DNA from: Octopus vulgaris
Lineage: Eukaryota
Direction of reading: 5' to 3'
Length of the DNA stretch: 64,000 nucleotides
Assembly (NCBI GenBank): GCA_951406725.2
Contig: OX597840.1
Span: 19,964,001 to 20,028,000, forward strand
In this document: positions 5,517-60,616 of the stretch, piece by piece
Layout: every line of letters starts with the position of its first letter
Numbering within the stretch: the first letter of the stretch is position 1
Translations under genes and position numbers: made by a program
Notes under the pieces: model-generated
What the model was told of the DNA's origin: nothing
What the model saw: the letters and a program-made list of their open reading frames with translations, nothing else
Database searches by the model: none

Positions 5517-5785
5517 TATTATTACCTTTATTATTAAGGTGTCGAGCTGGCAGAATCGGTGGCACGCTGGGCGAAGTGCTCAGTGTAGTTCGTTCGCCAC
5601 TACGCGCGGGTGAGGGTGTGGTTGCTATTTTCGGTTGCTTTCTTTCTCTAACTCTCTATCTTTCTCTTTATATTTCTTCCTTCAATAAACACTCACAACG
5701 CCCAGGCTGGGAAACGAAACCGCGATCCTACCACTGCGAGTCCGCTGCCCTAACTACTGGGCTATATATATAATATATATATTAT

Positions 5786-6200
5786 GTGGCTGTGTGGTAA
5801 GTAGCTTGCTAGCCAACCACATGGTTCTGGGTTCAGTTCCACTGCGTGACATCTTGGGCAAGTGTCTTCTGCTATAGCCTTGGGCCCACCAATGCCTTGT
5901 GAGTGGATTTGGTAGACGGAAACTGAAAGAAGCCTGTCGTATATATGTATATATATATATATATATGTATGTATGTGTGTATATGTTTGTGTGTCTGTGT
6001 TTGTCCCCCTAGCATTGCTTGACAATCGATGCTGGTGTGTTTACGTTCCCGTCACTTAGCGGTTCGGCAAAACAGACCGATAGAATAAATACTGGGCTTA
6101 CAACGAATAAGTCCCGGTGTCGATTTGCTCGACTAAAGGCGGTGCTCCAGCATGGCCGCAGTCAAATGACTGAAACAAGTAAAAGAGTAAAAGAGAAAGA
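5786..6200 (+). mobile_element. SINE family B (tRNA-derived head, CORE-like motif, internal microsatellite)
   Basis: A box GTGGCTGTGTGG, B box GGTTCAGTTCC, CTTGGGCAAGTG core-like motif, internal (TA)n/(TG)n, tail ...GACTGAAACAAGT(AAAAGAGT)n. More than 25 full or partial copies in the window. Confidence 0.88.
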
Positions 6201-6270
<70 letters not shown>

Positions 6271-6426
6271 GTATATATATATACATATATACACACGTAT
6301 ATATATATATATATATATACATATACACACACATATACACGAGTGAGTAGGCAAATGAAAGAAGGACACTCAACCAATTTATTGGGTGTTACATGTATGG
6401 ATCAAAACAGTTTGATTCAAATTCGT

Positions 6427-6467
6427 TGGTACTCTTGAGTTTCAAGCATGATGCTAGTCGTCAGCCA
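6427..6467 (-). ncRNA. Minimal type-I hammerhead ribozyme
   Basis: TGG CTGACGA CT-AGCA tca TGCT-T GAA ACTC aa GAGT A^ CCA. Confidence 0.68.
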
Positions 6468-6474
6468 TTTTAAA

Positions 6475-6505
<31 letters not shown>

Positions 6506-6766
6506 TTGTGCACGTGTGTGTTTGTGCACGTGTGTGTGCGTGAGTACGTGACTCATGGTATTTTGTTTGACTCATAGAAATTCCCCTGCAGGTATATTTT
6601 CCATCAATGCTCAATGACCACCCTGGTTACGGTTACACCCGATCTAATTTCAATCCTCTTTTCCTCTTCGCAACCCACGAAGCGTGACAGACAAAAAAGC
6701 CCCCCCCCCCCAACGCTCATTTTACCCCTCCTACTTCCACTCCTGCACTTTCTATTTATGTATTTT

Positions 6767-6797
<31 letters not shown>

Positions 6798-6951
6798 CTC
6801 ATAACGACCTCCTACCTCCAAAACCGTTTTCTGGGACAGCAAAACAAAATACAAATGATTAATTATAATATGTGGCTAATCTCCTCCTGATTAGTAAAGA
6901 ATATATTTCCTTTCAGACGAAATGACAGGTGTAGTAGTAGTAGTAGTAGTG

Positions 6952-7013
<62 letters not shown>

Positions 7014-7118
7014 CCGGAGTAAACACATAAATGTGAAACAAGGTGGAAAAAAGAGTACTCAAATACCAGTGGTAGAGTAATATGCTTTATTTAAAAGCAG
7101 CAGAAAATTCAACAAAAT

Positions 7119-7156
7119 CTGTTACTCTGAGTTTCTCGTTGCCGTTCATCAGACAG
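7119..7156 (-). ncRNA. Minimal type-I hammerhead ribozyme
   Basis: CTGT CTGATGA ACG gcaa CGA GAA ACTC-A-GAGT A^ ACAG; GUA triplet. Confidence 0.72.
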
Positions 7157-7184
7157 TTTTTGCTAGAATCTAGCTTTAAATAAA

Positions 7185-7256
<72 letters not shown>

Positions 7257-7261
7257 TCTCT

Positions 7262-7483
7262 TTCTTTTATTCTCTTTTACCTTGTTTCAGTCATTTGACT
7301 GCGGCCATGCTGGAGCACCGCCTTTAATCGAGCAACTCGACCCCGGGACTTATTCTTTTTGTAAGCCCAGTACTTATTCTATCGGTCTCTTTTGCCGAAC
7401 CGCTAGTTGACGGGGACGTAAACACACCAGCATCGGTTGTCAAGCGATACTGGGGGACAAACACAGACATACAAACACATACG

Positions 7484-7535
<52 letters not shown>

Positions 7536-7720
7536 TACATACTTACACACATATATACGACGGGCTTCTTTCAGTTTCCGTCTACCAAATCCACTCACAA
7601 GGCTTTGGTCGACCCCAGGCTATAGTAGAAGACACTTGCCCTAGGTGTCACGCAGTGGGACTGAACCCGGAACCGTGTGGTTGGTAAACAAGCTACTTAC
7701 CACACAGCCACTGCTGCGCT
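7262..7720 (-). mobile_element. SINE family B
   Basis: Full-length match to the other copies. Confidence 0.88.
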
Positions 7721-8087
7721 ATATATATATATATATATAAATAATGAGGGAGATAAATTGAATATTAATTTAATTAACATCAATTTAAAACCAGTAGCCT
7801 AGCATACAAAAATCTGAAAAATCAGAGAAAGTTCTATTACATGTGTATATTTAAAGGGCAAAAACCACTAGGTGGTCAGCCGTATGCTAGACCACCTAGT
7901 GGTTTTTGCCCTTTATATATATATATACGGGGGTGTGTGATTGTGTATAGAAGAATATATTAATAAAAGGAATTCCAACCTTGTCTGATTTTCATTTTTT
8001 ATTTACAATCTTATAATGATATAATATAATATAATATAATAAAATAAAATAAAATAAAATAATAGAATGTTAAATGTTCATTCTGAT

Positions 8088-8132
8088 TGAACTAGTACTT
8101 TCATGCATTAAATTCTGCAATCTTCAGGTTCA
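8088..8132 (-). ncRNA. Minimal type-I hammerhead ribozyme
   Basis: TGAAC CTGAAGA T-TGCA gaatttaa TGCA-T GAA AGTACT A^ GTTCA: 5-bp stem I, full core, palindromic stem III, CUA cleavage triplet. Confidence 0.8.
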
Positions 8133-8169
8133 TGTAGTAGTGGTGACAGTCATGCTTCACAATTTTTGA

Positions 8170-8214
<45 letters not shown>

Positions 8215-8430
8215 GGCGCAGGAGTGTTTGTGCTGAGTAGCTTGTAAACGGACTGTCCCTCATCTGGATAATTAATACTTCGAAGGTTCTGGCTATGAAA
8301 CATATGTAGCCTGGATTGTATCTACTGCATTCCCTAATTTTGGATGTATAATAGTCATATGTATAAGTGGAGCAAGAGCACACACGAAAACGAAAAGTGT
8401 CGCTGAAGAGGTCACAGATACGTGACAAAA

Positions 8431-8635
8431 TACGGCGGGGTGAAATGCTTTGCGGTATTTCGTCTGCCGTTACGGTCTGAGTTCAAATTCCGCCGAGGTC
8501 GCCTTTGCCTTTCATCCTTTCGGGGTCGATAAATTAAGTACCAGTTACGCACTGGGGTCGATGTAATCGACTTAATACCTATGTCTGTCCTTGTTTGTCC
8601 CCCCTATGTTTAGCCCCTTGTGGGCAGTAAAGAAG
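8431..8635 (+). mobile_element. SINE family A (tail-1) with a 16-bp TSD
   Basis: TSD CAGATA(C/A)GTGACAAAA at 8415-8430 and 8636-8651. Confidence 0.88.
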
Positions 8636-8669
8636 CAGATAAGTGACAAAAGATTTCCGGACAACGGAC

Positions 8670-8723
<54 letters not shown>

Positions 8724-8834
8724 ATTTAGGGATGGCCATGTTGCCAGTTTAGCCAATAAAAAACACACGCACTATAAATTTGGTGTTAATTTTGTTTAGC
8801 TTCTTTCTTTTTTTTTTACTTTAAGCGTATTTCA

Positions 8835-8876
8835 GCCAGAGTTCTTTCGTCACACTTCTGTGACCTCATCAGTGGT
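8835..8876 (-). ncRNA. Minimal type-I hammerhead ribozyme
   Basis: CCA CTGATGA G GTCACA gaag TGTGAC GAA AGAACT C^ TGG. Confidence 0.75.
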
Positions 8877-9191
8877 CTTTGCTTTCTTGTTTCTCATTTG
8901 TGTGTCTCTCCTTACTAACGATCGACCATATTGTATTTTGTATATATATATGTGTGTGTGGGGGGAGAGTTTACGGAAAAAAAACAAAAGACGAAGACAG
9001 GTGGTGTAGAAAACAAACAGATGTATTAGTATAACGCTCAGGAATAGAAAAAGTCTTTTATGTTTCGAGCCTACGTTCTTCTACAGAAAGGGACACAAAA
9101 AAAAAAACAAGGAGAGAAAAAATGTGTGTAATGGCTAACGATCTATCATGGCGACTAGTATATATATCTATACGTACATACATACATATAT

Positions 9192-9398
9192 ACTCTTTTT
9201 CTTTCTTTTTACTTATTTCAGTCATTTTGACTGCGGCCATGCTGGAGCACCGCCTTTAGTCGAGCAAATCGACCCCGGGACTTATTCTTTGTAAGTCCAG
9301 TACTTATTCTATCGCTCTCTTTTGTCGAACCGCTATGGTTACGGGGACATAAACACACCAGCATCGGTTGTCAAGCAATGCTAGGGGGACAAACACAG

Positions 9399-9444
<46 letters not shown>

Positions 9445-9740
9445 GACAGGCTTCTTTCAGTTTCCGTCTACCAAATCCACTCACAAGGCATTGGTCGGCC
9501 AGGGGCGGCTATAGCAGAAGACACTTGCCCAAGATGCCACGTAGTGGGACTGAACCCGGAACCGTGTGGTTGGTTAGCAAGCTACTTACCACACAGCCAC
9601 TCCTGCGCCTATTCTTTGTAAGCCCAGTACTTATTCTATCGGACACTTTTGCCGAACCGCTAGATAACAGGGACGTAAACACACCAGCATCGGTTGTCAA
9701 GCAATGCTAGAGGGACAAACACAGACACACAAACACATAC
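9192..9740 (-). mobile_element. SINE family B plus an adjacent partial copy
   Basis: Full copy 9192-9611, partial 9611-9740. Confidence 0.85.
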
Positions 9741-53000: not shown

Positions 53001-53501
53001 GCCTGGCAGTGCTATCGAGAAGCATTACCTGTTCGGGATAAGCTCTACAGACACGGTTCCAGACACACTGGACCGACTTGCCCGAGATGCGGTCAGAGCG
53101 ACGAAACCGTTCTGCACGCACTCGTGCAATGTCCAACCATTTCCGACCTGTGGGCTTATGCCGAACGGCTGCTGTCACGTGTGGGACGAATCCGCCTATC
53201 GGCCGAGTCTATCGTGAGAATTGCTCCGCCCCCTTCCCTCAACCGGGAAGGCAAGGCAGTTTTCATCGTACTGGTGGCCATGGTGAAAGAATGTGTGTGG
53301 TGGACTCGAGCGAAAGGATTAGAGACAAACACTTACCTCTCTGGCCAATCGCTCATCAACTTTTTCAAGTACCACTTGAAAAGGAAGGTGAGAATGGAGA
53401 GGGAAGTTTTGTCTCGCGAAAGATTCAAAAAAAAGATGGGTGAATGTTGCAAAGATGGTGCGTGCTAGTGCAACGAAACCATTTTGAGCATGATCCTGTA
53501 G
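50062..53501 (+). CDS. LINE ORF2: APE endonuclease + reverse transcriptase + C-terminal zinc finger; frameshift at the A6 run 50913-50918 and small indels near the C-terminus
   Basis: EN motifs SINVRGL, ISET, VYAP, GDWN, SYLDR, YTDH; linker PGYWKLN; RT motifs KSPGLDGLPYEFY, NFRPITLLNADLKILAK, LDQSKAFDRVDH, VRQGCPLS, AYADD; GGLGMP; CPRC-x7-H-x4-C finger. Confidence 0.93.
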
Positions 53502-57238: not shown

Positions 57239-57492
57239 TGTAGGGCAGGATTCATGACAGAAGAACTGTAGACAGGAACTTCGCTGCGGACTGGCTAGGA
57301 AGTTGGTCAGCAGCGAAAGGGACTTCCGGTCGGAGAAGAAAAACAAAAGAATGTCAACAGCGAGTGTTAAACGAATTTGAGTGACCAAAACAGAAATAAT
57401 TGACAATTTCAGTCCTGATGTACGTAAAGTAAGAAACCTTTGGTAAATATACTCTCGTCTTCACTAGTTTGTTGGCGTATAGCTTTCAATAG

Positions 57493-60209: not shown

Positions 60210-60260
<51 letters not shown>

Positions 60261-60360
60261 GGAGTAAACACATAAATGTGAAACAAGGTGGAAAAAGAGT
60301 ACTCAAATACCAGTGGTAGAGTAATATGTTTTATTTAAAAGCAGCAGAAAATTCAACAAA

Positions 60361-60402
60361 ACCTGTTACTCTGAGTTTCACGTTTCCGTTCGTCGGACAG
60401 GT
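60361..60402 (-). ncRNA. Hammerhead ribozyme, same family as 7119-7156 (U4C variant)
   Basis: ACCTGT CCGACGA ACG gaaa CGT GAA ACTC-A-GAGT A^ ACAGGT. Confidence 0.65.
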
Positions 60403-60428
60403 TTTGTTGAATTTTCTGCTGCTTTTAA

Positions 60429-60616
<188 letters not shown>

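Follow-up and report, generated by a model that had tools for sequence, protein, structure and literature searches.

Eight repeat-family ends between TA runs

The window analysed here is a stretch of 64,000 nucleotides of the Octopus vulgaris genome (contig OX597840.1, positions 19,964,001 to 20,028,000), dominated by microsatellites. Within 2.8 kb of it (the locus, about 6340-9160), we identified the 3' ends of eight repeat families, interleaved with several copies of a short repeat. The features are listed below, with families named after the first coordinate of their copy at the locus, identities counted against the family majority sequence, and Penelope-like elements abbreviated as PLEs.

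6202-9166, no strand: (TA)n runs between the ends; (TA)6 or longer occurs 3.1 times per kb in 6200-9450 vs. 1.0-1.5 times per kb elsewhere
6340-6475, minus: 3' end (pLTR and tail) of a decayed Hydra-like PLE; hammerhead 6427-6467, predicted cut after 6430; 129/136 identical
7015-7185, minus: 3' end of a Hydra-clade PLE that is young and autonomous; hammerhead 7119-7156, its cut predicted after 7123; 156/157 identical
7173-7185: remnant of an inverted arm within the 7015-7185 end
7190-7739, and likewise 5763-6269 and 9159-9608, no strand: interspersed short repeat found by self-comparison, which we take to be an octopus-type SINE
7741-7915, minus: another (TA)n-flanked family, represented by its 3' end and a short 5' piece in inverted orientation; the copy breaks off downstream of the family hammerhead, which lies upstream of the portion retained
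7929-8174, minus: 3' end of a Neptune-like PLE that is autonomous; hammerhead 8088-8132, stem III palindromic and cut predicted after 8093; 237/241 identical
8248-8350, plus: 3' end of an old family whose hammerhead has a long stem II; the 3' half of the hammerhead is left (GAAA at 8297-8300, palindrome, UA, stem I strand) and the 5' core is lost
8364-8671, plus: 3' region of a family that is sister to the 8718-8943 family; the core lies at 8403-8409, G12 carries a mutation, and an insertion interrupts the copy
8431-8642: the 212-nt insertion inside 8364-8671, presumably a SINE, with a 9-nt target duplication (8422-8430 and 8643-8651)
8718-8943, minus: 3' end of a PLE family with a C-terminal GIY-YIG, presumably of a Nematis-like clade; hammerhead 8836-8875 with non-palindromic stem III, predicted cut after 8839; 202/219 identical
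8967-9159, minus: 3' end of a Neptune-like PLE family with an A6U core; motif 9055-9090 damaged in stems II and III; 180/185 identical

The assignment of the 7929, 8718 and 8967 families to Neptune versus Nematis is our assumption. The first-pass annotation had counted about five sequence families, which is too few: what it treated as a single island at 8250-8670 comprises two families (8248-8350 and 8364-8671), and the end at 7741-7915 had been overlooked. Six of the eight ends point one way, which is not significant (two-sided binomial p of about 0.29, by hand).

Elsewhere in the window, we observed a 3.5-kb (TATG)n array of 876 copies (17994-21470), a tRNA gene with a UUG anticodon (Gln) on the minus strand (24058-24129, 69 bits in Rfam), and a near-intact LINE with ORF1, endonuclease and RT frames on the plus strand (47764-53468), which by its motifs we presume to be L1/Tx1-like.

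Hammerhead motifs at the locus

Hammerheads were searched for with a strict type-I descriptor (CUGANGA, stem II of at least 2 bp, GAAA, stem III of at least 1 bp, UH, and stem I of at least 3 bp) that tolerates unpaired bases at the base of stem II. Exactly four matches were found in the window, all of them within the locus and on the minus strand: the 6427, 7119, 8088 and 8836 motifs of the list, which together span 2.45 kb. These are four of the six motifs, five of them correctly assigned to the minus strand, that had been proposed from the sequence by eye. The other two, at 9055-9090 and around 8397-8662, are broken copies, and the majority sequences of both their families carry the motif. 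In the 9055-9090 copy, the core CUGUAGA is a trait of the family, and the mutations of the 15.2-16.2 pair and of one stem II pair are private to the copy. Of the five CUGANGA words in 6300-9200, the fifth, at 8403, belongs to the copy with the mutated G12. The minimal type-I core with stems I and II in type-I order is present in four of the eight repeat ends and absent from the other four copies. A search of the 2.8 kb for permuted hammerheads at stems of 4/4/3 bp found none.

Among the four intact motifs, stem III, described in the first-pass annotation as often palindromic, is a perfect palindrome only at 8088-8132; it is near-palindromic at 6427 and 7119, and not palindromic at 8836. A G10.1-C11.1 pair is found only at 8836; the 6427, 7119 and 8088 motifs have U.U, A.A and U.U at these positions, as do the majority sequences of their families.

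Could these motifs be chance matches in AT-rich repeat DNA? Their stems are short, and none of them has a hammerhead match in Rfam, either at the gathering score or at E ≤ 10. When the locus, microsatellites excluded, is shuffled by dinucleotides, however, the mean is 0.0015 motifs, with none of 2000 shuffles reaching four; for the whole window, treated likewise, the mean is 0.04, with none of 200 reaching four. The motif is also kept in other copies of the four intact families, of which 17/24, 26/29, 24/24 and 18/24 pass the descriptor, and apparent compensatory changes occur in stem I (see below). Together, the shuffles, the conservation within families and these changes refute a chance origin, to which we give a negligible probability. 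In the families with broken copies, 17/24 copies of the 8967 family pass a relaxed core and 4/9 other copies of the 8364 family pass the descriptor, and in the old 8248 family none of 15 other copies passes, with the long-stem-II hammerhead still present in the majority sequence.

Further sites in the window had been proposed as well. Those at 15602 and 24727 pass the relaxed core, those at 23470 and 23540 form an inverted pair with a swapped core, and those at 42116, 60361 and 63500 are decayed, though recognizable by eye. The inverted pair (23400-23600) carries a hammerhead with a G3-C8 core, a 7-bp stem I and a palindromic stem III; all 8 matches at the anchor of this family have the G3-C8 core, and the family was matched in 7 of 100 sampled regions. 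At 42116 and 63500, type-I hammerheads of two more families have decayed, and one of the two has a long stem II. A relaxed-core match at 57281 was treated as likely chance, given 0.4 such matches per shuffled window.

Covariation in stem I was examined with this stem left free in the anchor, by comparing related subfamilies against a strand-shuffle control of 1000 shuffles. Double changes that keep the pair were seen in three groups: C-G in 23 vs. G-C in 5 of 42 copies, A-U in 14 vs. G-C in 7 of 23, and G-C in 15 vs. U-A in 10 of 26. All 1000 control shuffles were exceeded only by the third group, the Hydra group (81 vs. a maximum of 77); the other groups reached 153 vs. a maximum of 155 and 68 vs. 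a maximum of 71.

Five of the repeat families run upstream into PLE coding sequence

Genome searches with the eight ends returned 290-2563 first-look candidates each, of which 40 were scored per search and the best 15-30 loci used. Upstream RT and/or GIY-YIG coding sequence was reached for five of the eight families, in line with the PLE origin proposed in the first-pass annotation; no ORF was traced for the 7741, 8248 and 8364 families. PLE clades were assigned by sequence motifs.

The 7015 family is the best resolved. Two loci (L261 and L262) contain 3.36-kb direct repeats with a hammerhead in each, around an intact, stop-free frame of 727 amino acids (L261:4818-6998 and L262:1561-3741) that lies in tandem and inverted arrays. 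This frame carries RWK (53), DKT (129), CxCX5C (578), YRDD, CxxC (683) and CxH (711). By RWK, DKT, CxCX5C, CxxC and CxH, together with insertion at (TA)n, the family falls within the Hydra clade as defined by motifs. An ORF remnant upstream of a 6340-family copy (L265) is a decayed relative of the Hydra ORF and matches it at E = 1.6 × 10−36. At least 1.5 kb of upstream sequence in 4/24 copies of the 7929 family, and 1487 nt in a fifth, leads into YLDD, a CX4CX2C linker and a GIY-YIG domain (Pfam E = 1.8 × 10−4, below the cut-off). The 8967 family has an RT and an endonuclease related to those of the 7929 family, with Pfam RVT_1 at E = 2.5 × 10−7, above the cut-off (L266). Of the 8718 family, the C-terminal part alone was seen, and it has a GIY-YIG domain and a cysteine linker. 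Pfam returned nothing for the Hydra 727-aa ORF or for the 8718-family fragments. The features that define the Neptune and Nematis clades are found in translations of the 7929 and 8718 families, and the core cysteines in the 8967 family. The ORF link of the 6340, 8718 and 8967 families is seen in 1-3 long copies each, with low-complexity sequence between.

The architecture of the families is likewise that of PLEs: RT and GIY-YIG in one ORF upstream of the 3' end (5/8 families, the 8718 family by its C-terminal part), tandem or partially tandem pLTRs, inverted 5' copies and an optional tail. The 3' ends are fixed at (TA)n and the 5' ends are variable, and two 3' termini are separated by the tail. 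The proposed association with TA microsatellites was borne out, (TA)3 adjoining the 3' ends in 22/24, 29/29 (the 7015 family), 21/24, 17/24 and 6/24 copies of five families; in the family with 6/24, many copies continue into a longer tail. Inverted upstream copies were present in 13/24, 28/29, 3/24, 3/24 and 1/24 copies, the value of 28/29 being inflated by the choice of query. In an older copy of the 7015 family at 60258-60440, the inverted arm starts again from stem I, at its 3' strand (by eye), as if the cDNA had folded back on the ribozyme's own stem.

These families had been described as non-autonomous, and the islands could be hammerhead elements of that kind (retrozymes or mini-PLEs) copied as short units by PLE proteins. 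Animal retrozymes have been proposed as non-autonomous PLE derivatives (10.64898/2026.07.22.740005), and an initial search with 7015-7185 indeed gave short copies that had a single 5' junction in common and carried a long inverted repeat. That junction proved to be a query bias. A pattern of the 7119 motif that requires the non-inverted upstream base has 1863 exact matches in the genome (0 for the reversed control), all 30 fetched loci among them resemble the Hydra element upstream, and the 1863 copies extend upstream into the coding element; we therefore rejected the idea that the 7015 family is a hairpin element, non-autonomous and fixed at its 5' end. Four other families also extend into RT or endonuclease sequence, the five traced families being 5'-truncated copies of coding elements, and the short, non-coding head-to-tail units with a hammerhead in each that characterize retrozymes are absent from the locus. 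The three families with no traced ORF would fit a non-autonomous origin. On balance, we consider it unlikely that the islands are such elements.

Density of hammerheads at the locus and in the genome

To compare the locus with the genome, we searched 100 systematically spaced 10-kb regions (60 genome-wide, 20 from the same contig and 20 from small contigs). Strict motifs numbered 12, 3 and 7 in these sets, or 22 per Mb, compared to 0-3 per 600 kb and 0-1 per 400 kb in shuffles of the sample. The 22 motifs represent about ten families, and 14 of them have a palindromic stem III. Of the first 12, 9 have (TA)5 within 200 nt downstream, vs. 14% of random positions. For the 2.8-Gb genome, we estimate a total of about 60,000 intact-looking motifs (range roughly 40,000-90,000).

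With four motifs in 2.8 kb, the locus lies about 65-fold above the genome average, and the sample contained at most two motifs per 2.82 kb, as inverted pairs; the high local density that had been suggested is real. At the mean density, the Poisson probability of four or more motifs is 5.9 × 10−7 per 2.82-kb window, which corresponds to about 0.6 such windows per genome, and it rises to between 9 × 10−6 and 4 × 10−5 if the local density is 2-3 times higher, as the density of TA runs is. The flanks of 192 other family copies, with the nearest 150 nt left out, contained 9 motifs of other families in 518 kb, which is no enrichment over 22 per Mb. General clustering of hammerheads around PLE ends was not found in these flanks, so that a general, self-reinforcing rule of nesting is unsupported and the local excess is not explained by it.

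Would RNA from the locus cut itself?

The first-pass annotation expected potential self-cleavage sites to be unusually dense in any transcript that crosses the locus, and the analysis does not bear this out. Each of the eight families occurs once in the locus, with no second copy on the same strand nearby. Dimers between families at the locus were rejected as an alternative: no combination gives a stem I of at least 3 bp, the best having 2 bp. The computed occupancies of the monomer fold are 7 × 10−5, 1 × 10−4, 4 × 10−5, 3 × 10−6 and 6 × 10−10, in a 2D energy model that ignores tertiary contacts. By 2D estimates, stem III of a homodimer is favourable for three motifs (−7.1, −7.4 and −4.8 kcal/mol) and not for the other two. 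Minimal PLE hammerheads are reported not to cleave as monomers and to show low cleavage as dimers (PMC4209133), and the hammerhead of Anolis Poseidon required protein to cut and proved unnecessary for insertion (PMC11167929). As modelled here, the single copies in the locus are probably inert. Since each motif stands without the partner copy that it would be expected to need, the cluster is likely a harmless graveyard rather than a cutting device.

The same results bear on the idea of a kept, functional ribozyme cassette, in which a minus-strand host transcript would be cut at several sites, by monomers or by trans-dimers with active Hydra RNA. Four intact motifs on one strand within 2.45 kb, at the Poisson probability given above, would fit such a cassette; the 7119 family is a young one whose ORFs are intact, and stem III of the 6427 and 7119 motifs could form 3 bp in the monomer. 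However, half of the eight ends lack the motif and their shared orientation is not significant, a dimer in cis is impossible and monomer occupancy is at most 1.3 × 10−4 in the same 2D model, and three of the four motifs lack the G10.1-C11.1 pair. No host exon is evident among ORFs of at least 130 amino acids, and the roughly 0.6 such windows per genome expected by chance would become more with an uneven TA density. We regard a functional cassette as very improbable.

A candidate type-SGC permuted hammerhead 13 kb away

On the plus strand at 22466-22529, 13 kb outside the 2.8 kb, we observed a candidate non-circularly permuted hammerhead of type SGC, with stems of 6/5/4 bp, a predicted cut after 22471 and a possible fourth helix (22453-22458 with 22504-22509). 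Its element (about 22070-22650) is (TA)n-flanked and apparently non-coding, with tandem and inverted copies; no ORF was traced for the family. Genome searches gave 4796 candidates, and a 35-nt stretch of the core was matched exactly 192 times; among 29 other copies, 13 pass the search, and one relative (L331) has a double change in stem III. Shuffling gave no match in three shuffles of 1.28 Mb and, under looser settings, 3 in five shuffles of 600 kb. A second, sequence-distinct candidate of SGC order lies on the plus strand of another locus (L032, near 2023). In the available part of the literature, this topology was found described only from environmental sequence (PMC10085705); judged by eye, the blocks of one Naiad 3' end in the supplement of Craig et al. 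follow this order too, although its stem II is weak. We lean slightly towards the reading that the hammerhead-bearing repeat ends of the window include a type-SGC ribozyme candidate in a (TA)n-flanked, apparently non-coding family of thousands of copies.

Origin of the cluster

In our reading, eight repeat-family ends have very probably piled up at the locus by independent insertion; five of the families are traced to PLEs, and each end was likely left by an aborted insertion targeted to (TA)n. The GIY-YIG endonuclease of the element would nick a (TA)n run, and reverse transcription would halt after 100-250 bases, leaving a 5'-truncated end. An internal start of reverse transcription may make the tail, as internal priming has been put forward to explain two 3' termini separated by a tail (PMC11167929). 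According to the literature, the hammerhead would lie in the pLTR just upstream of the start of reverse transcription, so that nearly every stub would carry one. In the full element, again following the literature, the hammerhead likely cleaves either with the help of the element's protein or as a dimer that tandem pLTRs form. Identities of 92-99% to the family majority suggest that the copies arrived over a long time, and the absence of the motif from four of the eight suggests that the ends are decaying neutrally. Our best guess is that the locus is an extreme of neutral accumulation, a TA-rich stretch that acts as a neutral sink for the many insertions.

Comparison with known systems

By sequence, the elements at the locus belong to the system described in PMC4209133 and PMC8557442. 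Cervera and De la Peña (2014) reported minimal hammerheads from truncated PLEs that occur singly, on opposite strands and throughout the genome (PMC4209133). The motifs here share with those pLTR hammerheads the type-I order, a stem I of 3-5 bp, an extra base between 9 and 10.1, a tiny or palindromic stem III, the many families per genome with mostly single, truncated copies, the opposite-strand pairs and an apparent covariation of the 3-8 core pair. They differ from what the available text of that paper describes in that positions 10.1-11.1 are U.U or A.A rather than G-C in all intact motifs but the one at 8836, in the A6U family, and in a G3-C8 pair where that paper has U3-A8. The estimate of about 60,000 motifs compares with about 9,000 in Xenopus (PMC4209133), only roughly, as the descriptors differ.

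An octopus Hydra element with a (TA)n preference and a hammerhead was already listed by Craig et al. 2021 (PMC8557442). The 7015 family shares with the Hydra clade, including Hydra-1_Obim, the RWK and DKT motifs, the CxCX5C linker, CxxC and CxH, the (TA)n targets and a hammerhead near the 3' end (PMC8557442), and differs from Hydra-1_Obim as given there in the sequence of the hammerhead and in its 3.36-kb unit with clear pLTRs; one ORF of this analysis resembles Hydra-1_Obim, judged by eye. As in Anolis Poseidon (Frangieh et al. 2024, PMC11167929), there are two 3' termini split by a tail, tandem units, AT-rich targets and a hammerhead near the junction of pLTR and ORF. The Poseidon ORF starts inside the hammerhead, whereas the Hydra-family ORF here starts about 120-170 nt downstream, with the tail before the first ATG. 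Animal non-LTR retrozymes likewise have a type-I hammerhead and a relationship to PLEs (10.64898/2026.07.22.740005, PMC7229834), but are described as short, non-coding tandem repeats (10.64898/2026.07.22.740005), whereas the traced families here code for RT or endonuclease and the copies at the locus are single. Our literature search found no dedicated study of hammerheads in octopus or other cephalopods, and the main text of an octopus repeat paper (PMC13282606) contains neither 'hammerhead' nor 'ribozyme'.

In terms of PLE biology, the cluster itself is nothing out of the ordinary. As a sampler, the 3-kb stretch brings together variants of the ribozyme, including non-standard 10.1-11.1 pairs and an A6U core, from three or more PLE clades, and the estimated 40,000-90,000 intact-looking motifs exceed the counts found in the available text of Cervera 2014 (PMC4209133). 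If the SGC motif cleaves, that topology would be an abundant part of an animal genome and might represent the ribozyme that is missing from Naiad-type elements. The purpose of the hammerhead in PLEs could be addressed with the young Hydra family, whose ORFs are intact and whose pLTRs stand in tandem.
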